A DNA stretch of 64,000 nt from a phage. Location: sequence record PZ452611.1; one strand, written 5' to 3'. A program made the position numbers and the translations under genes. This document shows, piece after piece, positions 17-28,169 of this stretch; positions within the stretch are counted from its first letter, which is position 1, and every line of letters begins with the position of its first letter. The notes below the pieces were generated by a model. It saw nothing but the letters and a program-made list of their open reading frames with translations, had not been told where the DNA came from and searched no databases.

Positions 17-361
17 ATGTCCACACTGTGGCGAAAACCTGATTACCGTTTTCATCCTTCGGATTATGGTGGGTATTTACCGGAGGATGATGTAAACCCC
101 TGGTTTCCTGAATTTATAGCTCCACGTGATGCCTATCCAAAAATAACTTGCGGCTGGATAGGCAATGGATTTATAATCCCGGCCACAAAACCTGTCCCGC
201 AAATAGTTGACGCGGTTAGCGGGTATTCCATGCAACACGCCAAGCTGGGTGGAAAGAGTGCAAGAACGAAGATGATCCGAAGCCTCACGCCACGTGGCTG
301 GGCAAAAGCCGTATTCTTAGCAAACGAGCCTGTAGTAAGGAGCAGAATTAATGGGAAGTAA
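17..361 (+). CDS. hypothetical protein
   Basis: 114-aa ORF; ATG at 17 after AGGGG; stop overlaps start of next gene (ATGGGAAGTAA); no motif recognised. Confidence 0.4.
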   Translation: MSTLWRKPDYRFHPSDYGGYLPEDDVNPWFPEFIAPRDAYPKITCGWIGNGFIIPATKPVPQIVDAVSGYSMQHAKLGGKSARTKMIRSLTPRGWAKAVFLANEPVVRSRINGK

Positions 362-11853: not shown

Positions 11854-12301
11854 TACTGTAGAGGGAGATCTAATCTCTCTTTTCAAGAAAGGGTCGGGCC
11901 ACATGATCCACGGTTGTAACTGCTTTCACACAATGGGTGCAGGCATAGCGAAAGATATTGCCCGTGAGTTCCCTCAAGCACTGGCAGCCGACAAAGAGAC
12001 TGCCTATGGTAATCTGGACAAGCTGGGTATGTTTTCTTGTTGGGAGCATTTTGCCAAGAACAGGGTCGTATATGGAATCAACCTGTATACCCAGTTCTAC
12101 CCAGGGCCCAATGCTGAATACTTCTCAATAATGAAAGGTTTTGAGCGAGTCAACGAGGTATTCAAAGGTGTGTCATTGCCGTTCTACATTCCTAAAATTG
12201 GATGCGGTATTGGCGGTCTAAAGTGGGAACATGTAGAAGATGTAATTAATCTTGCAACCACAGATATTGATGTGGTTGTAGTAGAGTACAAAAAGTGTTG
12301 A
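11843..12301 (+). CDS. macro-domain-like protein (ADP-ribose binding/processing family)
   Basis: GDL...HGCNCFHTMGAGIAKDIAREFPQ motif typical of one macro-domain subgroup; probable GTG start 11843 after GAGGAG (start uncertain; longest ORF from 11744). Confidence 0.5.
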   Translation: MIIDTVEGDLISLFKKGSGHMIHGCNCFHTMGAGIAKDIAREFPQALAADKETAYGNLDKLGMFSCWEHFAKNRVVYGINLYTQFYPGPNAEYFSIMKGFERVNEVFKGVSLPFYIPKIGCGIGGLKWEHVEDVINLATTDIDVVVVEYKKC

Positions 12302-12355
12302 CGACCATCTTCTGAGGTGATATAGTTTCCACAACAACTAAGAGAGGAGAGCACT

Positions 12356-12526
12356 GTGGAGACTAAAATCTTAATTCTTGCTGTGGTAGATACAACCGAA
12401 GGAGCTATATTCGAATCTGCAGGAGGGTATTTCTACCTACCCTACGGAAAAAGAACTGCCGAACCGGGTAAAGATTCAATCATCAAAGTGTTCCCGTGTG
12501 CTTTCTGGCTGGAGATTCTGGCATGA
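12356..12526 (+). CDS. hypothetical small protein
   Basis: GTG after AGAGAGGAGAG; 56 aa (below track cutoff); ATGA overlap with next gene; downstream of promoter 12298-12326. Confidence 0.3.
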   Translation: METKILILAVVDTTEGAIFESAGGYFYLPYGKRTAEPGKDSIIKVFPCAFWLEILA

Positions 12527-12735
12527 AAACCTGCATGTGTGTGTCCACGCAATCGGATAATCAAGGGCTGTTTGAAGAATATCCAGTAATAGATGGGCCT
12601 AGCATATCCTTGTGCGACTTCCTGACTGGGACACGTGGTGGCTGTACAAAAGTGATGAATATTCAGGCTATTACTTTGCAAAAACATTTACCGGAGAGTT
12701 GGTATTTGTTCTGGAGGACTGAGGAGGGCTTATGA
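12523..12735 (+). CDS. hypothetical protein
   Basis: ATG overlapping upstream stop; Cys-rich N-terminus. Confidence 0.35.
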   Translation: MKTCMCVSTQSDNQGLFEEYPVIDGPSISLCDFLTGTRGGCTKVMNIQAITLQKHLPESWYLFWRTEEGL

Positions 12736-12926
12736 GAAACAAGAAAGAACTTTACTCTGGCGAGTGGATCAACGATCAACAGATTGGAGAGGTAACCTGC
12801 TTCCGATGTTTTACCAGGTACAATATTAAAACTGCACCAAAAAGTGTTCCAAAGACTGATGGTTATTACATAAAAGAACCTTATTGCCCAAAATGTAAAT
12901 GCCGATTATATTGGAGTAACCTGTAA
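12732..12926 (+). CDS. small zinc-ribbon protein
   Basis: CxxC...CxxC (CFRCF...CPKCKC); ATGA overlap. Confidence 0.4.
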   Translation: MRNKKELYSGEWINDQQIGEVTCFRCFTRYNIKTAPKSVPKTDGYYIKEPYCPKCKCRLYWSNL

Positions 12927-12930
12927 AAGA

Positions 12931-12958
12931 TTGACATCTGAAAACTGCAGTGTATAAT
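12931..12958 (+). promoter_or_regulatory. sigma70-like promoter
   Basis: TTGACA-16-TGTATAAT. Confidence 0.55.
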
Positions 12959-12989
12959 ATATGCATAAACTAACAGAGAGTGATGTATT

Positions 12990-13181
12990 ATGGTAATTTT
13001 TAACCGGGATGGTATCATAGTTAGACAGCACCCGTTCCTTGAATACTATCAAATTGAGCAATGGTGCTACGGGGATTGCAGTCACTCCTATGGGCAAAGT
13101 TGGGGATATCGTACAGTTTTTGAATCCACAGACCTTGACAAAGTAAGACAGAAAGTTTTAGAACTTATTAACAACAAGTGA
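12990..13181 (+). CDS. hypothetical protein
   Basis: downstream of strong promoter 12931-12958. Confidence 0.4.
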   Translation: MVIFNRDGIIVRQHPFLEYYQIEQWCYGDCSHSYGQSWGYRTVFESTDLDKVRQKVLELINNK

Positions 13182-13188
13182 GTATGAT

Positions 13189-13521
13189 ATGGTAACATTA
13201 GAAAGACGTAAAGCTATCGCCGCCACACTGGCAGACATCTTTTGGGAGTGCAATTTAAAAGATACTAGATATTGTGGCGCATCTGTAGATGCATTGTTCC
13301 CACGGCCCACTATTGTTGCAATGGGGAACCTGTTAAACGTAGTGTATGGAGCGTGGGACAAAGAAGGTGGATTTTATATCTGGCAACCTGACTACGGGAC
13401 CTGGAAAGAGGTAAGGGGTGCGGATGACTTTGGGCCTGCAGTTGCTAAGATGGATGGCTGGGAAATCTATGTTGGAAACGACATGAAGCTGAAGGGCGAG
13501 ATTGTTTACTGGTTACCTTAA
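13189..13521 (+). CDS. hypothetical protein
   Basis: RBS GTGAG; 110 aa. Confidence 0.4.
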   Translation: MVTLERRKAIAATLADIFWECNLKDTRYCGASVDALFPRPTIVAMGNLLNVVYGAWDKEGGFYIWQPDYGTWKEVRGADDFGPAVAKMDGWEIYVGNDMKLKGEIVYWLP

Positions 13522-13541
13522 GAAAGTGCAGGAGATAAAGT

Positions 13542-13787
13542 ATGAACAAAGGGTGGACATTTGTAGACGGCGTTAAAAACATGCCTCTAGGAAAGTATAT
13601 TGTAGCCATGGCTGATGAGGATGGCAATGTAGATTTCGGAGCTTGCGAGGTTGTTCTTGCAGGATCTGGTAACTATGTGAGTAAAACCGGGATAATTAAC
13701 GGTCAGTTCTACTTTGATCACAACCCTGTTGTAGCGTATATGGCTATGCCAGAGTTTAAGTTCCCAAAGGAGGATGCAGATGTTTAA
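13542..13787 (+). CDS. hypothetical protein
   Basis: RBS CAGGAGA; 81 aa. Confidence 0.45.
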   Translation: MNKGWTFVDGVKNMPLGKYIVAMADEDGNVDFGACEVVLAGSGNYVSKTGIINGQFYFDHNPVVAYMAMPEFKFPKEDADV

Positions 13788-13977
13788 GCTTAAATCTGCA
13801 TGGAACATCGCTGTGGGTGATGAGATCCGTATCCCCGGTGGGAAGACCATTATGAAGATATCTCGTATTGAGTACGAAGGTGACCGTGTATTCCACATCT
13901 TCGCAGAAGATGGTCGAGAAATTTATATACAGGCAGGTTCTCACATTTATATCCGTAAGAAAGGGGACGACAAATGA
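13780..13977 (+). CDS. hypothetical protein
   Basis: ATG 13780 6 nt after AAGGAGG. Confidence 0.4.
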   Translation: MFKLKSAWNIAVGDEIRIPGGKTIMKISRIEYEGDRVFHIFAEDGREIYIQAGSHIYIRKKGDDK

Positions 13978-14303
13978 CAGAGATCATCATTTCAACTGCA
14001 GGGTATGTGTTCCTGACAATCATTGCACTGACTATTTTGGTGACAGTGTATGGGTTTGTTATCCTTCCTATCCTTGAGACATTTAGTTTGTGTCGGTGTT
14101 GGAGAAAAGCTTACGGTCCACAACCATGGAAGGACTGGCCCCACCTAGTGCGCTTAGCGTTCTCTTATGCTTACGATCACTCCAGCAGTGCATGCATAAC
14201 CGGATACCACGCCCACAACTGGAGCTGGGAAGGGTTGAGGAAATGGAATGTTACAAAGACCATACCTCTGCGCATGTACAAACCTAAAAACAAAGACAGC
14301 TGA
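13974..14303 (+). CDS. hypothetical membrane protein
   Basis: RBS AAAGGGGA; N-terminal hydrophobic helix; last gene before repeat region. Confidence 0.45.
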   Translation: MTEIIISTAGYVFLTIIALTILVTVYGFVILPILETFSLCRCWRKAYGPQPWKDWPHLVRLAFSYAYDHSSSACITGYHAHNWSWEGLRKWNVTKTIPLRMYKPKNKDS

Positions 14304-14610
14304 TACTTGAAAATTCCTGGCATATCAAGTATAAGGGGGATTTCTAAAATGGATTTCCTCCTTTTGATATTTCACCGGGCTGGATATTTTAAAATTCTTA
14401 GAAAATCAGAAAATGGATCGAAAACTAAAATGGATTTTTTCAGCACAGGCGCGGAAAATTGTGCCAATCTATCTAGCCGTTTGCACCATATTCGAGATCA
14501 CCGTTCCAGATTTCCCACACATACACACCTCTCCACCATACCTTTCTCCACTCACTCTTAGTGATTTATGACGGAAAACCCATCGCTATCAGTGAGTTGC
14601 GGTACAATTT

Positions 14611-14795
14611 TTCCAGTACTCGATCTACTTTTCATCTCATGGCTTGGATTTTCTGAAAATTTTTCTCGATAAATTTCTCAGTACTCGATCTGTTTTTCGT
14701 TTTCTGAATCGGATTTTCTGGAAATCGTTCCGGAGCTCGACCTGAAATTTTTGGGGACGAAATCGATTTTTCGTTTTCAGAAATGGATTTTTAAA
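14611..14795. repeat. three imperfect tandem ~60-bp repeats in AT-rich non-coding region
   Basis: cagtactcgatct at 14614 and 14679; ggattttctg recurring; third diverged unit to 14795. Confidence 0.5.
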
Positions 14796-15078
14796 ATTTC
14801 TATATGGGAATATTTTATGGGATACTGTTTTATAGGAAATTGTTACGGAGGGTAATTAGCATGCTAACTAAATTTATGAAATGCGAAAAGTTCTCATTTA
14901 GAATTTTGAATGATAATCATTCTCGTTTGCAGAATAACGGGCACCCCCGGTGATTGTCTCCCGGCCCCTACTGCCCCGGCTTGTTATTATAGTAACACAC
15001 AGGACAAAGAAAGCAAGAAGTTTTTGCATAAATTTTTAGACGATAATGATAATCGTTCTCATTTTATGCAGCGCCCAT

Positions 15079-15114
15079 CCCCGGTGGTTGTCTCCCCCGT
15101 CACCGGTGCCTGCC
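15079..15114. repeat. GC-rich ~36-bp element, copy in forward orientation (partial copy 14944-14962)
   Basis: ccccggtggttgtctcccccgtcaccggtgcctgcc; about 33 of 37 positions match reverse complement of 23739-23786. Confidence 0.55.
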
Positions 15115-15318
15115 GTCCTTTCGATAGGTATATTGTGCCACCTGGCGGGGCCGCTGTCAACACTTTTCAAAAAATTTTTCTAACCTGATGCGCTAACCGC
15201 TGCAACCTGGCGGGGCCAGCCTGGCAGGACCTAACTGACCAGGTAGGAGAGAATGAAGGCTTATAATCTGGTGGGCCTGTGCTATAGGATAGGTAACAAT
15301 TGAAGAGGAGGTACAAAA

Positions 15319-15501
15319 ATGAAAGGTAATATGATCCCCCTGGAAAATGTAGCGATTAATGACGCTGAGGCTATCGCCCTGGTTGAAAAGGCTATGGCGG
15401 GAGCGTTGGAACATAAAGAAGAGTACGAAAAATGGTGGTTAACCTGGCGGGGGCGGCGGCTGGAGAATTCTGCCCAAAAAATAATTTTAACTAATGGTTG
15501 A
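15319..15501 (+). CDS. hypothetical protein
   Basis: perfect RBS GAGGAGG; 60 aa. Confidence 0.45.
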   Translation: MKGNMIPLENVAINDAEAIALVEKAMAGALEHKEEYEKWWLTWRGRRLENSAQKIILTNG

Positions 15502-15580
15502 CAGCTCGGACAGTTCTTGTTATTCTTATCCTCGCAAGGTGAACAACACCACACTAATTAACAGAGAGGATAAAAAAATC

Positions 15581-15778
15581 ATGAACGCCTACGGAATCAA
15601 AGTACGTCGCAGCACTCGCCAGGTGGTCACCGATCAAATGGTTTGCCAGGTGGACGTAACCATCAACAACGGGCAAGGCCTTTATAAATTTCGTCGCGGT
15701 CATAGCTATACCCTGCAACAGCTTAATCGTTGCGCCCTGACAAAAGGTCAGATCAACCACTGGTTTAATAAAAAATAA
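15581..15778 (+). CDS. hypothetical protein
   Basis: ATG after AGAGGATAAAAAAATC; promoter-like TTGACA at 15498. Confidence 0.45.
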   Translation: MNAYGIKVRRSTRQVVTDQMVCQVDVTINNGQGLYKFRRGHSYTLQQLNRCALTKGQINHWFNKK

Positions 15779-15782
15779 GTAT

Positions 15783-15811
15783 TGACATATAGTCCGACAC
15801 CAAATACACTA
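15783..15811 (+). promoter_or_regulatory. sigma70-like promoter
   Basis: TTGACA-17-TACACT. Confidence 0.45.
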
Positions 15812-15842
15812 AAAGCACAAAAGACACTAAGAGGATAAAATC

Positions 15843-16241
15843 ATGAAAACCACTACCTTTAATTTTGATAATGCAGACTTTTCTTTTTCTGATGTCAAGA
15901 ACTGCCGCCGTGATCGTGGATTTTACAAGGCTTATAATCTGGTGGGCCTGGACGATGACAATAATTTGCACGAAGTAGCTGAGATCCGGTATTATGCCGC
16001 CGCCAGTGGGAACACTTACTACTGCGTTTTTTGGATACACGACAACAAGAACAATAAGTACGGCTATACTGGCGGCAAGGCAAGCGGTCACGGTTATGAT
16101 AAAGCTAACGCAGCACTTGAGAGCGCATTAAATGCCATGGGGATCACTGCCGACGGCTGGATCTACGAAGAAGAGTTTTTGTCGGCACTTGCTGACCACC
16201 TAGGCTATAAAAAGCACATTGTAACATGCGCCCACGAATAA
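15843..16241 (+). CDS. hypothetical protein
   Basis: promoter 15783-15811; RBS AAGAGGA; contains 24-nt segment duplicated at 15256-15279. Confidence 0.5.
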   Translation: MKTTTFNFDNADFSFSDVKNCRRDRGFYKAYNLVGLDDDNNLHEVAEIRYYAAASGNTYYCVFWIHDNKNNKYGYTGGKASGHGYDKANAALESALNAMGITADGWIYEEEFLSALADHLGYKKHIVTCAHE

Positions 16242-16323
16242 AAATCATTGACACGCTGCAAAATTTAAGTAAACTAGACACAAAAGGCGGGAATGTTTCC
16301 CGCCAGCACAAAGGAAAAAGATC

Positions 16324-16728
16324 ATGAATAAGAACGTACGCCGCATCATGAACGAGTTGGCAAACGATGAAAAAATTATTGACATGCATTTGATCAACAT
16401 TTGCCGCCGTTGTGTAACATATAACAACCGCGCCGCAAAAGCGCGTGAGATGAACGCAAAAGGCACCTTAAAGCCATTCCAGGTGGTGGTAAAGGCCATT
16501 AAAGATGTAACTAATACGGCAAACCAGGTACAGGGGAACACCAACGAGAGTACCAATATTGATCCGGCTTACATCATGAAACGGATCCGGACCTGCAAGA
16601 ACAAAGAGCAAGTGTATAATGTCATAGACTGGTTGGATTCTATGGGCGATGTGGTTTACAATAGGTTTTCTGCAGCTATCGAGATCCAGCTTGACAGGTT
16701 GGACGGTAAAGTACTAAAAACTTACTAA
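16324..16728 (+). CDS. hypothetical protein
   Basis: TTGACA 16248; 5'-UTR hairpin 16286-16304; RBS AAAGGAAAAAG. Confidence 0.5.
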   Translation: MNKNVRRIMNELANDEKIIDMHLINICRRCVTYNNRAAKAREMNAKGTLKPFQVVVKAIKDVTNTANQVQGNTNESTNIDPAYIMKRIRTCKNKEQVYNVIDWLDSMGDVVYNRFSAAIEIQLDRLDGKVLKTY

Positions 16729-16776
16729 GTTTATTTTTAGATGGCCTTGACTCCAGGGCCATCGATAAAGTAAACT
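16729..16776. repeat. ~48-bp intergenic palindromic element, copy 1
   Basis: tttatttttagatggccttgactccagggccatcgataaagtaaac directly after stop codon. Confidence 0.6.
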
Positions 16777-16808
16777 AATCCCAGTTAAGCGAAAAAGGAG
16801 GCTTGAAG

Positions 16809-16927
16809 ATGAGCACTACACGCCAACACACAAAGGTAACGATTATCGTTTGCATCATTGGTTACATCCTGGCGCAAATGTTGATGGGTAGCGCCAATGA
16901 TTTCGCAAAATTTTTCTTAGACTTTTA
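16809..16927 (+). CDS. small hydrophobic (single-TM) peptide
   Basis: 39-aa ORF after AAAAGGAGG; hydrophobic core VTIIVCIIGYILAQMLMG; below track cutoff. Confidence 0.35.
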
Positions 16928-16928
16928 A

Positions 16929-16956
16929 TTGACAAGCTAACTTAAATCAGTATAAT
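16929..16956 (+). promoter_or_regulatory. sigma70 consensus promoter
   Basis: TTGACA-16-TATAAT. Confidence 0.6.
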
Positions 16957-17008
16957 ACTAAGCACATAAACGGGAAAACTTCCCAGAACACCAAAAGGAG
17001 AAAACATT

Positions 17009-17359
17009 ATGAATACTTCCATCACTATGACCGCCGAAGAAAAAGCCCTGCAGATCGCCGCTCTGAAAAAACAGATTGCAGAACTTGAAGACAAGATCGA
17101 CAATTTTGAAATCGACGAAGACAAATACGACGATAAATATGATGAATGGTTGGACGAGATCTACGGCGAAATTATGATCGGAAACATTTCTTTTCTTCCG
17201 TCGCGTATCCTCAAGGAGCTAGATCCTATCGCTTACCGCTGCGGATTTAGCGACTACATCGACAGCCTGGATATTGAGGACGATGAAGAATACCAGGAAT
17301 TACAGACAGAGCTTGAAGAAGTGAAAGAAGAGCTTGCAGAACTGGAAGAAAACGAGTAA
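17009..17359 (+). CDS. acidic coiled-coil protein
   Basis: consensus promoter 16929-16956; RBS AAAAGGAGAAAACATT; very acidic D/E-rich sequence. Confidence 0.5.
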   Translation: MNTSITMTAEEKALQIAALKKQIAELEDKIDNFEIDEDKYDDKYDEWLDEIYGEIMIGNISFLPSRILKELDPIAYRCGFSDYIDSLDIEDDEEYQELQTELEEVKEELAELEENE

Positions 17360-17408
17360 ATTTATTTTTAGATGGCCTTGACTTCAGGGCCATCAATAAA
17401 GTAAACTT
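17359..17408. repeat. intergenic palindromic element, copy 2
   Basis: aatttatttttagatggccttgacttcagggccatcaataaagtaaac after stop codon. Confidence 0.6.
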
Positions 17409-17448
17409 TAGACTGTTAACACTTAACCAATACAGAGGAGTTAAAACC

Positions 17449-17694
17449 ATGGCCGCACTAATTACCAAATATTATGCCCCTACCAACACCAAAAGCGCCC
17501 GTATCATGGTAAAAGGCTTCGGACGTAAAAAGGTGTACACCTGGGATTATTCCCTAGACATGGAAGACAACTACACCAACGCGATGACAGATTTTATTAA
17601 TGAGCTGAACACGCGGATCTTGACAAATTATAAAATTACCGATATTGCCTATATAGGGGAAGGCGGGATCTGTTTTGTCGGTATCGTCAAATAA
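17449..17694 (+). CDS. hypothetical protein
   Basis: RBS AGAGGAG; 81 aa. Confidence 0.45.
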   Translation: MAALITKYYAPTNTKSARIMVKGFGRKKVYTWDYSLDMEDNYTNAMTDFINELNTRILTNYKITDIAYIGEGGICFVGIVK

Positions 17695-17770
17695 ACTGTT
17701 TTTTCGGTGGTCCTGGTAGCAGGGCCATCTATAAAGATAGTTTATCAGCACAATGAAAGGAGAAAGTAAC

Positions 17771-18124
17771 ATGATCAGCGGGGCAAGTTTTATTATTGGC
17801 GCTATTGCTACGGCTTTAATTGTAAACAAGATCCAATCCAAAAACGAAAAAGAGAGCAACGCGCTTACAGAATACCCATTTTGGGTATTCAACGACAATG
17901 AAGACTACATTATCAAGTACAAGGATGAGAAAGGGGACCAGGTAACACCGAGACCGATCCCAGCTTACAAGATGCAAGAAACATTATACCGCTTAAAGGC
18001 TGGCGGCGCAAAAATCGTAGACTTTTGGGGATATGATTGCAAGGATCAGGAGACTATAAAACGTCGTATCCGGGCGATTCAGGCAAATATTGAGATCAGT
18101 AAAGGGGGCGTTTATGAAAATTAA
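17771..18124 (+). CDS. membrane-anchored hypothetical protein
   Basis: ATG 17771 after AAAGGAGAAAG; N-terminal TM helix. Confidence 0.45.
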   Translation: MISGASFIIGAIATALIVNKIQSKNEKESNALTEYPFWVFNDNEDYIIKYKDEKGDQVTPRPIPAYKMQETLYRLKAGGAKIVDFWGYDCKDQETIKRRIRAIQANIEISKGGVYEN

Positions 18125-21716: not shown

Positions 21717-22001
21717 ATGGCTATTGTCACCGTTGGCGATGTAGTGGAAATGGAAGCAAAATACTTAAAAGCGGGTATGCATATCCTACGGAATGATCAA
21801 GAATTGTTATTAACGATGGTAGACTATAATCCCGGCCAGGATTATCCAAGCATCGACATACTTTTTGAGTATGTTGATGAAGAATTGAAAGAGGATGAGG
21901 CTTATCAGGGTGAATTCTGCAATTTCTTTTGCCCTGATGAGGTTGTAAAAGTTATCTATCAACCTGGCGTACCTTTCCCGCTGCACGCTATCAATAAATA
22001 A
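21717..22001 (+). CDS. hypothetical protein
   Basis: promoter 21632-21660; hairpin GGGGGCGGCCCCC; RBS ATAGGAG. Confidence 0.5.
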   Translation: MAIVTVGDVVEMEAKYLKAGMHILRNDQELLLTMVDYNPGQDYPSIDILFEYVDEELKEDEAYQGEFCNFFCPDEVVKVIYQPGVPFPLHAINK

Positions 22002-22055: not shown

Positions 22056-22289
22056 ATGATGGAACAAATTAAACGCGCTGAGGCTATTAATGGCAATGTG
22101 ATCTATTTTGTCAGCAAAAACGAAAAAGGCGTACCATATGCGGCGGTAATAGTACAACCTGACGGCGATTATTGGTTTACTGTATACGGATCTTATTCTT
22201 TCGGGCGTCCGGTTCATGATAGAATTTTGAAAGTAGCGAATCCGACCGGGAAAAATATCACAGCAGAAAAATTTTTTGAAAATAGTTGA
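22056..22289 (+). CDS. hypothetical protein
   Basis: hairpin; RBS AAAGAGAGG. Confidence 0.45.
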   Translation: MMEQIKRAEAINGNVIYFVSKNEKGVPYAAVIVQPDGDYWFTVYGSYSFGRPVHDRILKVANPTGKNITAEKFFENS

Positions 22290-22314
22290 CATGACCATAT
22301 AAGACTGTAATATA
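22286..22314 (+). promoter_or_regulatory. sigma70-like promoter
   Basis: TTGACA-16-TAATAT. Confidence 0.5.
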
Positions 22315-23678: not shown

Positions 23679-23738
23679 TATTTATAAACTACAAAACAGG
23701 GCTTGCAATGGTCCTGTTTTTTGTTATACTTATTCCAC

Positions 23739-23786
23739 GGCAGGCACCTGGCGACGGGGGGAGACAATCACCGGGGGGTGCCTGTC
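23739..23786. repeat. GC-rich element, inverted copy with internal 8-bp stem
   Basis: ggcaggcacctggcgacggggggagacaatcaccggggggtgcctgtc. Confidence 0.55.
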
Positions 23787-23807
23787 ATATAAGAACTATA
23801 AAAACCG

Positions 23808-25349: not shown

Positions 25350-25367
25350 TTTCTTAACTAAACTATC

Positions 25368-25395
25368 AGGGGCTTTAAAAGGCCCCTTTCTTTTG
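25368..25395 (+). terminator. rho-independent terminator ending plus-strand arm
   Basis: AGGGGC-tttaaaag-GCCCCT then TTCTTTTG. Confidence 0.55.
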
Positions 25396-26347
25396 TCTGT
25401 ATTTCTCCTACCACAAACGGCCCAGCCTGGCAAGTGGAATAATTGACTAGCCAGCAATTACCAACACTGTACAAATATACATATAAAATAACTATTGCAT
25501 AATCTTTCATCTTGTGGTAGCAGGGCCATTTTTACACGTTTTCCTTCCAAAATTGCACGTAATGCAGCTATTGCATAAAATTTAACCTGATGCACATCTT
25601 CAATAGCTTGTCAACAACTAAAAATCTTTATAAGTCATACACTTACATAACCACAAAAGCGTGTTCTACGTGAAAAATCGAGTATAACTATAGCCGCCAG
25701 ATCTCAGAATTTACGTACGCTCACCATTCTATAGTCTGCTAAGTATTTATTCCAACCATAGAATAACAGAATAGTCAATACCTGCATAAAATAATTATTC
25801 GTGTAAACTGCATAACATAAATCAGCCGGGGTGTCAACATTTTTCGTAAACGGCTCGAAATTATCACTGTGAGCTATCATAAACAGAGAAATCTTTAGTC
25901 GTCTAATGTTTACTGTACGTTACTATACTAACTGGAATCATTAGATGACTAATAAAAAGATAAGAAATCATTAACAATGCAATTGTTTTATTCATAACAA
26001 TAAGGCAACTATGCAAACGAATGGCATGGCGCGACGGAGTCGCGACATAATATAAAAGCAGTAACCATCACCCCCGTGATAGTTTGTCTGCAAACTATTA
26101 ATCAGATCATAGTTGCCTTGTATTTAGTTAATCATGACATAAACTCAGGCATAGCCTTCGTCTCGAGGATGTTAACAAGCAAGGCAACTATAGATCTTCT
26201 AATAGTTGCCCTGCTTTTATATTATGTCATAGAAACACCCGAAGGGGTGACCAAAGGTCACCTGGCATAGCCAGTGAAATATTGTAAACAAGTTAATTAT
26301 TATCATGCAAACGAATGGCATGGCTTATCATCTCTGTGTAAATAGTT

Positions 26348-26511
26348 TGTTTGTAAACAGTTTATACGTGAACAGTTAGCTGTGTAAACTATCAGGCATG
26401 TAAGCTATTGAGCATGTAAACAGTAAAGGTCGTGAACAGTAAGCGAGCGAATAGTAATGGCGTGAACAATGACAGCGTAAACAGTCAGGCATGTCAATTA
26501 TGTTCAGTGTG
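26348..26511. repeat. tandem array of 11 units, 15-16 bp period, consensus n6-GTRAACAGT (iteron-like)
   Basis: 9-mers start at 26348, 26363, 26378, 26394, 26410, 26426, 26442, 26457, 26472, 26487, 26503. Confidence 0.7.
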
Positions 26512-27953
26512 TCACCATTATGTCATATTGTGTCAGACAAGTTTTTCTCCTCTTTGTCAAGTGCTGCATGAAAAATTTACAATCTGGTATGGTAGCATTT
26601 TTGCGGCCCTGTTTACATTCAGTACTGTATGTATAAGCCTTGTTGTGTGGGCGCTTAGACGTCTAGACGGTTGGAAGTCTGCAGGTCAATATCTAATCTA
26701 TTGGTTGCTAACTATATCCCACACAAATAGTAAGAAATGCAATTGTTATATGCGTAAACTGTAACTCATGTTATCAATCCCTGTATGGATCGCCAGTGGT
26801 GCGCATAATAGGTATTATGTTAAATTGCCAGTAATGATAACTATTCTCACAGTGATAGGTATTCTCATTCAACCCCACAAGATAGGTTGCAAATGTTGTG
26901 CCACTGTGTGAACGGCCTCGCCTATTAATTTGCCTCACTGCCTCGATATTTGAGAATTATTATAAGAATGAGAAGTATTCCCATTTCGTCCGCCTGGCAG
27001 CACTCCTGTAGGTCAGGTCAAAATCGGGAGAGAACTGGACCTGTTCAGATATTTCTGGCTGGCTCTTCAGGTCTGTGTGGGAAAAGCCGACCCCTCCGGC
27101 GGCGGGGAGGGGGTCAATTAAAAAATTTACGGGGCATATGAAGCGCTCTTCAGGTAAGGCATGTATTATGGGATGAAACCCTCTTCAGGAAATGATATTT
27201 GTGGGTGTGATATTTGCTGGAAAGCTAGATATGACTGGACTCCTGGCGGGGCAGGGGTAGTACAGACAGGGGAAATATGGGGGATGTAGTTGGGTAAATT
27301 GATCAGGCAGGTAGAGTATGGAATATGTTACGAGTATGTTAAATATGGAGGGTGAATATCTGCAGGATTTGTGTGTAAAATCAAAGACTTAAGTGGTGTT
27401 GTGGTATTTTCTATAAATAATTCAAGTTTAATAGGTGATATTTGTCCCTATCCACTTTGTGTGGTAAACAGATTCAGATGAGATTGGTTTACGAGTGTAT
27501 ACATAATATACAAATTAAAGATACAAGAAACCCCCCTCCCCCTTCGGCTACCATTCACCTTTTCCTCTGACTGGTACTTAAACACTTATTCAGACTCTTC
27601 AGGTTATCACCCATATATCATATGGCAGTGACTGGTGTCCTCCGGCCCCTCTTTCGTCACCCGTCCGCTTCGCCATGCTAATGCCATAGCCAATGGTTCG
27701 GTTGTTCACCCTGTTCACTCAGGTGTATCTCCATACCCCTTCAAACCGAAGAGAACAGAAAACCCGAATTACTCGGTAAAAGAAAAGAGAAGAACTTAAT
27801 TTTATCAGGATAAGCAAGAATGTCAAGGCATGACTGCTCACTAAACAAGCAAACAGTCATGTGTGGGAGGTAAGTGATTGTGGTGGTAGGAAATTTAGTT
27901 GAAAGATGTGTTATAGGTGCTCCCAGCACTTTAGCCGGGTAGCTAATTGTGTG

Positions 27954-28169
27954 TCAGTCCAGCGGTTCATCCTCTACTTCACTGAAATCAATGTTCATGG
28001 TCTCTTCCCAACCATCGATCTCAGCACAAGAGTGAAGTTCTTTAGGGTTTACTCCCAAAGCCTCAGCAACAGAGTCTATATTTAACACCTCTGGCAGGTA
28101 TGATTCATCGAATTCAAGGTAAATCAGGCCACGAGTGTTGTCAGCCCCACCAAATATTTCTATCTTCAT
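27954..28169 (-). CDS. hypothetical protein
   Basis: ATG (MKIEIFGG) 5 nt after GAGGAG; track ORF trimmed. Confidence 0.4.
   Translation of the reverse strand: MKIEIFGGADNTRGLIYLEFDESYLPEVLNIDSVAEALGVNPKELHSCAEIDGWEETMNIDFSEVEDEPLD

Follow-up and report, generated by a model that had tools for sequence, protein, structure and literature searches.

The DNA analysed here, referred to as the window, is a 64,000-nucleotide stretch of phage sequence (PZ452611.1) that was identified as Escherichia phage rV5 (NC_011041/DQ832317) read on the reverse strand, a window position w corresponding to record position 131970 - w. A repeat-bearing region at 14304-14900, which an earlier note made from the letters alone had singled out as an origin-like or protein-binding locus, is better read as the left two-thirds of an approximately 1-kb, gene-free, cis-acting DNA control module extending over 14304-15318. 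The repeats in that region are real and are not due to chance, and most of the Fur-like sites and all of the promoter-like sites of the module lie just beyond 14900. Tentatively, and with less than even confidence, the module is interpreted as a once-per-genome, iteron-type replication origin that would be entered and activated by leftward transcription, with the host iron regulator Fur as an input. Coding capacity and chance are effectively excluded as explanations of the locus.

The description of the region as AT-rich was borne out, its GC content of 0.363 (window mean 0.429) ranking within the bottom 1% of 597-bp windows. The locus is 82-100% identical and of near-constant length in the seven Vequintavirus genomes compared, with zero indels over 14606-15010. 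Between rV5 and FV3, block I (14336-14447) is 95% identical, the spacer (14448-14605) 66%, the iteron zone 87%, and the two units right of 14880 (A and B) 99% each, and the end of the adjacent gp195 coding sequence is 86% identical. Judged from these alignments, the approximately 1-kb module is read as non-coding DNA under strong selection, and it is more conserved than the genes that flank it. Conservation of the repeats in relatives, on which the earlier note had let its proposal depend, was checked, and motifs, order, orientation, and spacing were found to be kept across genera. The predicted protein-binding locus is accordingly well supported, since the motif geometry is conserved across genera and the intervening sequence is not; conserved distances across unconserved sequence suggest proteins assembling on the DNA in a fixed geometry.

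When 14860-15320 served as query in a sensitive search, 258 phage records from several genera were reached. The parts of the module, with order and orientation unchanged, were found in Seunavirus (GAP31, KE22), Certrevirus (phiTE, F2M1E, POP18), Mydovirus (BIS47, DP), Henunavirus (Hena1), and the unclassified phages TH18 and ABPH49, and a partial module was found in Phapecoctavirus (anhysbys, ESCO13), KP13-16, and Aeromonas phage 2L372X. The shared parts are two to five copies of GATATTT right behind the upstream stop codon; a spacer of about 163-178 bp, divergent in sequence; three to six same-strand iterons, gGT(a/t/c)CTCGATC, at a spacing of 63-78 bp, with T-tracts, a G(G/T)ATTTT box, and an A/T run behind each (about 254-264 bp for the whole zone); two to four AATGAgAATcATTCTCATT-type palindromes; an imperfect, GC-rich inverted repeat whose conserved centre is GGTGnTTGTCTC; and minus-strand promoter-like hexamers. 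In Vequintavirus, Seunavirus, Certrevirus, Mydovirus, TH18, and ABPH49 the iterons are located 100-290 bp to the left of the Fur boxes, and those of Henunavirus and the Aeromonas phage, similarly placed, are degenerate. Scans of IMG/VR and metagenomes added almost solely close relatives. An origin of the module from a bacterial chromosome was rejected, a scan of species representatives having given scattered matches at about chance level and the E. coli genome one weak match.

Two hypothetical proteins, gp194 (14349-14561) and gp193 (14910-15188), are annotated at the locus in the rV5 record, and it is very improbable that the region codes for them. The gp194 ATG at 14349 is preceded by a strong Shine-Dalgarno-like sequence, AAGGGGGA (AAGGAGGA in relatives), but this more plausibly forms the 5' arm of a terminator-like hairpin, and indels of 1-2 nt shorten the frame to 14-37 amino acids in four of the seven Vequintavirus genomes. 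The gp193 frame is open in all seven genomes compared, one genome having a frameshift, and a PHROG family exists for it; against this, gp193 has no Shine-Dalgarno sequence, its ATG falls within the palindrome of Fur-like box A, and its variation by codon position (5/8/10 in the seven genomes) has no third-position excess. The 99% nucleotide identity also tops that of the adjacent real genes, Pfam searches gave no match for gp193 and a single one far under threshold for gp194 (E 0.04), and the annotators of related genomes disagree here, calling different open reading frames (ORFs), on either strand, or none. The region had been called non-coding in the earlier note, which these results confirm; the accompanying statement that its ORFs lack ribosome-binding sites is consistent with gp193 and fails for the annotated start of gp194. 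The features of the module are as follows.

14300..14335, no strand: weak inverted repeat CTGATACTTGA / TCAAGTATAAG, overlapping the gp195 stop codon
14336..14372, plus strand: terminator-like hairpin GGGGGA...TCCTCC followed by TTTTGATATTT; GGAGGA in relatives
14366..14389, plus strand: two GATATTT repeats (14366, 14383); relatives have 2-5 copies in the same relative place, all on the plus strand
14404..14447, plus strand: near-invariant block AAAATCAGAAAATGGATCGAAAACTAAAATGGATTTTTTC, holding two AAATGGAT motifs
14448..14605, no strand: variable spacer, about 65% identical within the genus, with 1-2 nt indels
14606..14670, plus strand: repeat unit 1, with iteron CAGTACTCGATCT (14614-14626), T-tracts, GGATTTTCTG (14646), and AAAATTTTT
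14671..14744, plus strand: repeat unit 2, with iteron CAGTACTCGATCT (14679-14691), GGATTTTCTG (14711), and half-iteron GAGCTCGACCT (14733-14743)
14745..14800, plus strand: repeat unit 3, with degenerate iteron GGGGACGAAATCGA (14753-14766), AT-rich hairpin ACGAAA/TTTCGT, and AAATGGATTT (14781)
14880..14898, no strand: degenerate Fur-like box AATGCGAAAAGTTCTCATT, to the left of box A at 29 bp, the spacing seen in the arrays of relatives
14909..14927, no strand: Fur-like box A AATGATAATCATTCTCGTT, core TGATAATCATTCTCG, 2 mismatches to TGATAATnATTATCA
14933..14988, no strand: GC-rich imperfect inverted repeat A, conserved centre GGTGATTGTCTCC
14986..15016, minus strand: promoter-like P1, -35 TTGCTT (15016..15011), 16 bp, -10 TACTAT (14994..14989), with an overlapping TATAAT (14991..14986)
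15042..15063, no strand: Fur-like box B GATAATGATAATCGTTCTC, core TGATAATCGTTCTCA, 2 mismatches to the 7-1-7 motif
15068..15117, no strand: GC-rich inverted repeat B, centre GGTGGTTGTCTCC, stem CCGGTG/CACCGG, paralogue of A and of a copy at 23737-23788
15132..15181, minus strand: promoter-like P2, UP-like A/T tract (15181..15161), -35 TTGACA (15160..15155), 17 bp, TG-extended -10 CACAAT (15137..15132)
15182..15318, plus strand: variable right edge with (A)ACCTGGCGGGGCC repeats, running up to the next small gene, at its Shine-Dalgarno sequence and ATG (15319)

The three imperfect direct units, which start at 14606, 14671, and 14745 (spacing 65 and 74 bp), are 74-75% identical. They had been described as three tandem units sharing one motif; three units are indeed present, but only two carry CAGTACTCGATCT, the third being degenerate, and this degenerate iteron aligns with the third iteron of other genera. 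Half-iterons were also found at the matching place in phiTE. In the tandem-repeat analysis proposed for the region, Tandem Repeats Finder reported no array of about 65 bp, the units being too diverged for it. The iteron core GTNCTCGATC occurs exactly at 14616 and 14681 only in the 64 kb (about 0.5 in shuffles), no second locus matching the iteron region was found by BLAST of the rV5 record, and none was found in the 50 kb of FV3 examined; an apparent second place in FV3-type genomes was dismissed, since there unit 1 simply matches unit 2. Direct repeats of a short sequence at a single locus, as expected of iterons, are present, with three to six same-strand copies in relatives. The AT-rich, bendable DNA characteristic of iteron origins was also found, with a GC content of 0.325 over 14606-14900 and a predicted curvature peak centred at 14648 (z -4.5, 7th strongest in the 64 kb, using a wedge model). 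With regard to the shorter motif, AAATGGATTT is exact at 14347, 14428, and 14781 only (both strands, 64 kb) and GGATTTTCTG at 14646 and 14711 only (64 kb), and at 14411 there is a variant, AAATGGATCG.

The palindromic boxes at the locus match the site of the host iron regulator Fur and are putative binding sites for it. Box B (15042-15060) agrees with the classical Fur consensus GATAATGATAATCATTATC at 17 of 19 positions (expectation 0.07 matches per window), and the 7-1-7 motif TGATAATnATTATCA, with up to 2 mismatches allowed, occurs at six sites in the 64 kb against about 0.6 expected: 14911 and 15047 in the locus, 26291, 26835, and 26951 in another non-coding block, and 62846. The palindrome form of these phages, AATGAgAATcATTCTCATT, fits this motif with 0-2 mismatches, as in the E. 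coli Fur regulon (ryhB promoter); the boxes of relatives have 0-1 mismatches to it, and Klebsiella phage DP has a perfect one. A box-like sequence of the E. coli ryhB promoter, AATGAGAATGATTATTATT, differs from a box of phage anhysbys at 2 of 19 positions. Unlike sites of that regulon, the locus boxes do not lie over recognisable rightward -35 and -10 hexamers, form 29-bp arrays, and belong to strictly lytic phages; a rightward promoter candidate over box A (TTGAAT-18-CAGAAT) scores 8/12, and its key -10 A is unconserved. The spacing in the arrays of relatives is exactly 29 bp. The Fur-like boxes are the best-conserved columns of the cross-genus alignment, with box A the most conserved element, as is expected for the site of a conserved host protein. 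They are located downstream of P1 and of P2, and beside a third leftward promoter-like site in Seunavirus and Mydovirus.

Promoter-like sites were sought with a simple sigma-70 scan, in which P2 scores 10/12 plus TG, and the same criteria were applied to 24 genomes anchored at GAATnnCGGGCA, 14 of which are not Vequintavirus. Minus-strand sites were found at +227..253 from the anchor, which is the P2 offset, in 22 of the 24 genomes, and at +84..87, the P1 offset, in 11 of the 14 non-Vequintavirus genomes at a threshold of 9/12; the third minus-strand site lies at -40 to -74 in Seunavirus and Mydovirus, and plus-strand sigma-70-like sites were few and inconsistent. Hexamers and their spacing are kept and the spacers are variable, which is the usual signature of a real promoter. 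The predicted promoters P2 and P1 both face the AT-rich iteron zone from the minus strand, at offsets kept across genera. In other genera a small leftward gene lies directly right of P2 (DUF7170 in some, a function-less PHROG in others), which indicates that leftward transcription exists at the locus. The UP tract and -35 of P2 (15155-15181) share 25 of 27 nt, AGAAAAATTTTTTGAAAAnnGTTGACA, with a plus-strand promoter-like site at 22265-22291; the latter precedes TAATAT and a gene starting at about 22367, and it is without promoter annotation in the rV5 record.

On the left side of the module, the 8-bp inverted repeat reported at 14304-14336 exists, with 11-nt arms at 14300-14310 and 14325-14335 that are 91% complementary, but it is unconserved, FV3 having TCAAACAT and isim a different repeat there. 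The hairpin at 14336-14372 contains the supposed Shine-Dalgarno sequence and ATG of gp194 as well as the first AAATGGATTT; its plus-strand RNA folds at -13.3 kcal/mol (z -2.07) and its minus strand at -5.2 (z 0.1), and G/A variation in its arm preserves a G-U pair on the plus strand only. Together with its T-run, it is a likely terminator of the upstream genes. The length of the spacer, about 163-178 bp, is conserved across genera though its sequence is not. In all seven Vequintavirus genomes the plus strand of the spacer is poor in G and rich in C despite about 65% identity, a 96-nt window of it reaching the 99th percentile for pyrimidine content. Such a composition would suit Rho loading on a rightward RNA or a stable hybrid formed by a leftward RNA, and it was given little weight because the bias is absent outside Vequintavirus.

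One GC-rich inverted repeat follows each of the two promoters, and a third copy at 23737-23788 (ACGGCAGGCACC...GGAGACAATCACC...GGTGCCTGTCAT), in the opposite orientation to A and B, is kept in FV3. This third copy is situated between a terminator-like hairpin and the annotated promoter P168, just upstream of P168, and folds well on both strands (z about -3). No structured RNA is claimed at the inverted repeats of the locus: z-scores were -0.2 to -1.8, RNAalifold returned a 4-bp stem only, and the anchored outer stem is 64% Watson-Crick, its G-U pairs suiting one strand no better than the other. No Rfam match at E<=1 was found in window positions 12000-18000 or in six related loci, and a search for tRNA and tmRNA found none. 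Outside Vequintavirus the place of unit B is held by a strongly conserved GC-rich element, CGAACTACCGGCGATCCACCTTCC...GGTACGTTAGCCCCGCCTTTTCGCCGTGGGGTGGCG, followed by a T/C run (L015 1640-1760, L010 2640-2740, L008 2680-2770, L017 1650-1730 in the extracted loci); it has a stem TACCGG/CCGGTA, with G-U variants fitting a plus-strand RNA, matches no Rfam family, and is a candidate small RNA or terminator.

The origin was placed first among the possible functions on the basis of a single locus, same-strand repeats, bent AT-rich DNA, fixed geometry, promoters directed into the repeats, and the absence of coding; the motifs with their uniqueness, conservation, and spacing are observed, and all binding, promoter activity, transcriptional direction, and a role as origin are inferred. 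In this proposal, rightward transcription from the upstream genes would halt at the hairpin 14336-14372, and host RNA polymerase would initiate at the tandem minus-strand promoters P2 (15160..15132) and P1 (15016..14986), move leftward over the Fur-box array (15045, 14909, 14880), and enter the bent AT-rich zone of the three iteron units (14800 to 14606), where a phage protein would bind gGTaCTCGATC. Opening of the zone, or the transcript itself, would supply the start for a T7-like primase-helicase and a PolA-type polymerase. Fe-Fur on the boxes would gate the transcription reaching the iterons and would thereby couple initiation to host iron status.

The locus was compared with iteron origins, namely lambda ori, P1 oriR, R6K, pSC101, and the origin of the Vibrio phage satellite PLE with its RepA-bound iterons. 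As in these systems, same-strand copies of about 10-13 bp are collected at one locus in AT-rich, bent, non-coding DNA with transcription nearby; unlike in them, the spacing is 63-78 bp rather than about 20 bp, no recognisable initiator gene adjoins the locus, and DnaA and IHF sites are lacking. T7 replication starts at tandem promoters followed by an AT-rich region, and the tandem promoters leading into an AT-rich zone liken the locus to the T7 primary origin (promoters 1.1A/1.1B), T4 oriF/oriG, and ColE1 RNA II. In the manner of such transcription-primed origins, the Vequintavirus transcript would be purine- and G-rich over the spacer. The locus differs from the T7, T4, and ColE1 origins in that its promoters are of the host sigma-70 type and oppose the surrounding genes, Fur boxes stand between them and the AT-rich zone, and iterons are present. 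The replisome is also of the T7 type, a gp4-like primase-helicase and a PolA-family polymerase being encoded by rV5-type phage (PMC3606486).

Several observations weigh against an origin at this locus. No initiator protein was recognised among the neighbours, which belong to function-less PHROG families with no Pfam match, and the leftward gene found in other genera (DUF7170 or a function-less PHROG) differs from genus to genus. IHF, Fis, and DnaA had been suggested as host factors in the earlier note; no consensus sites for any of them were found at the locus, and the sequence points instead to Fur, which that note does not mention. GATC is not enriched there, though each iteron carries one, and clustering of GATC/Dam sites was rejected for that reason. 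P1 scores only 8/12 in rV5, under the 9/12 threshold, and is weak there; the G-rich composition of a leftward RNA over the spacer is confined to Vequintavirus; and Phapecoctavirus keeps the Fur boxes and promoters and not these iterons. A Fur-gated origin has, to our knowledge, no precedent. The cumulative GC skew does not turn at the locus, and according to the rV5 authors the skew changes only where the direction of transcription changes; they did not succeed in locating an origin by skew (PMC3606486). A second non-coding block at 25352-27957, with 16-bp repeats of its own and Fur-like boxes, could be an alternative origin.

This second block (record 104013-106618, 2.6 kb) is given as 'non-coding' in the rV5 paper and is, according to its authors, the sole place nearby with a skew change (PMC3606486). 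It carries the 16-bp repeats CATGTAAACnnT at 26368, 26384, 26400, 26477, and 26754, Fur-like boxes at 26291, 26835, and 26951, and five copies of GATATTT (26945-27437), and in FV3 genes converge from both sides on its counterpart. The block is a candidate for a rival origin or a terminus.

The promoters, the hairpin, and the Fur boxes could instead belong to a transcription switch or insulator, the chief alternative to an origin, though a rather doubtful one. Fur-gated leftward promoters would in that case make an antisense or non-coding RNA of about 0.7-0.9 kb that controls, by collision or pairing, read-through from the upstream genes into the small-gene island, with the iterons and GATATTT repeats as operators for a phage regulator. 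Antisense transcription and the terminator would in this way partition the long rightward unit. Conserved minus-strand promoters within a long plus-strand transcription unit (PMC3606486) would fit this, as would a terminator-like hairpin at the left edge, a Vequintavirus spacer of the Rho-loading type, Fur boxes directly downstream of the promoters or beside the third one at -40..-74 in Seunavirus and Mydovirus, and the additional GC-rich element of other genera, which ends in a plus-strand terminator-like hairpin with G-U pairs favouring the plus strand. A functional RNA is, however, not indicated by the Rfam, RNAalifold, and folding results given above, the spacer composition is unconserved outside the genus, and iterons confined to a single place are unusual for operators. 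Distances that are conserved where sequence is not point to DNA geometry rather than to RNA.

Three direct repeats on bent DNA at fixed spacing have also been likened to the terminase sites lambda cosB (R1-R3 with an IHF bend), SPP1 pacL/pacR, and P1 pac, which similarly have few boxes at a single locus, and the module might accordingly be a pac site, at which headful packaging would begin once the small terminase subunit had bound the repeated boxes of the bent DNA. This was judged improbable. The site was found once in the sequence examined, but it lies in the early-gene region, distant from the terminase genes, and there is no obvious role in packaging for the Fur boxes and promoters. A number of public records begin at most a few kb from the locus, and one Salmonella phage record begins inside it; the start points of records vary widely between genomes, however, and a start within tandem repeats is equally explained by an assembly break. 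The rV5 relatives phiTE and PVP-SE1 are reported to be terminally redundant and circularly permuted (PMC3475682), so that a pac site may be needed somewhere. Fixed genome ends or a terminal repeat, as suggested by a 'repeat_region' and an 'attL' in two records, were disfavoured, given the circular permutation of relatives and the nature of those features as minor artefacts of annotation. The Fur boxes alone might act as a decoy, the three to six boxes of each multiplying genome titrating Fur and de-repressing host iron uptake and other Fur-repressed genes, with the left repeats serving a separate function. Multicopy Fur boxes are known to titrate Fur, as in the Fur titration assay, the near-consensus boxes stand in arrays of two to four (perfect in Klebsiella phage DP) and are kept across hosts sharing the Fur box, and the two non-coding blocks hold five of the six best boxes of the window. 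Ribonucleotide reductases also occur in these phages, with anaerobic NrdD/G annotated in FV3 and both NrdA/NrdB and NrdD/G carried by Certrevirus CB7 (PMC7344957). A decoy is nevertheless unlikely: Fur is abundant, so that the small number of boxes in each genome may be too low, a local cis role is suggested by the strictness of the 29-bp spacing and by the constant placement of the boxes with respect to promoters and iterons, and the remainder of the module is left unexplained. A decoy role could coexist with any of the other functions.

Three further candidates were considered and rejected. Many plus-strand AUGGAU motifs suggested a CsrA sponge, but in neither Seunavirus nor Certrevirus is the GGA conserved; a Rho-dependent leader-peptide attenuator using the gp194 start was set aside because the length of that ORF is unconserved. 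The pseudo-ToxI of phiTE, an rV5-like phage, is likewise made up of non-coding tandem repeats, with 36-nt units and an escape locus at 106,714-106,772 (PMC3475682). A type III antitoxin mimic of this kind was rejected, the homologue of the module being at about 39-40 kb of phiTE, with no sequence resemblance seen.

The locus lies within a long rightward (window plus-strand) transcription unit described by the rV5 authors (genes 10-1-238-164), with small ORFs of unknown function flanking it left and right (PMC3606486), and the replication genes are located about 6-14 kb upstream. The gene directly upstream, gp195, encodes a small protein of a PHROG family without assigned function and with no Pfam match. 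The earlier note placed the locus directly after the last replication-arm gene and took it to separate the replication genes from a small-gene island; gp195 is not recognisable as a replication gene, and small ORFs are present on both sides. Genes flanking the module vary between close relatives while the module stays: a ClpP-like gene takes the place of gp195 in SYGMH1 (L007), isim (L004) has a different gp195 C-terminus, and phiWec193 (L006) has no gp192. With flanking genes exchanged and the module kept, the module stands at a boundary between exchangeable gene cassettes. The variable right edge (15182..15318) includes a 49-bp segment missing from FV3-type genomes. Its (A)ACCTGGCGGGGCC motif recurs at 15140, 15204, and 22001, with a near copy in gp192 at about 15441, and at 22001 it is the left arm of a GGGGCC-GAAAA-GGCCCC hairpin behind a gene end. 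An exact 24-bp duplicate, AAGGCTTATAATCTGGTGGGCCTG, containing TATAAT, is present at 15256-15279 and 15927-15950, the first copy being partly in the 49-bp segment that FV3-type genomes lack.

Two irregularities in public records were observed. Sixteen 'Campylobacter phage' records (MG0656xx, host C. jejuni) are 91-92% identical to rV5 over the locus and have rV5-like sizes, and these records look mislabelled or contaminated. The record of Salmonella phage vB_Sen_SG_WM_RUS_R7 (L009 1-126), which is filed under Demerecviridae yet matches Seunavirus, starts inside the module just past the third iteron unit and has an annotated 80-bp 'attL'; this start is likely an assembly break in the repeats.

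Literature searches on Fur boxes, origins, and transcriptomes of rV5-like phages returned nothing on this locus and no paper mentioning Fur boxes in these phages. Iterons, Fur boxes, and promoters are known as kinds of element; no description seems to exist of their combination, of its conservation over several genera of strictly lytic phages, or of the Fur-box array. It is conceivable, if on balance unlikely, that strictly lytic phages of Vequintavirinae and Stephanstirmvirinae, together with the Aeromonas phage, read host iron status through Fur, the 29-bp-spaced boxes gating antisense transcription into the iterons and making replication or an early-to-middle switch iron-dependent, or the array doubling as a Fur decoy. 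The analysis corrects the annotation of two 'hypothetical proteins' and defines a compact cis element shared by several genera, whose iteron zone is an obvious first candidate for phage-dependent replicons and genome engineering. With host ranges that rank with the broadest of any coliphage, rV5-like phages have found use in cocktails for biocontrol and therapy. Provided that the Fur boxes are functional, a virulent phage would have wired the metal regulator of its host into its own control of replication or gene timing, and this would bear on phage performance in iron-poor settings such as the gut and infected tissue.

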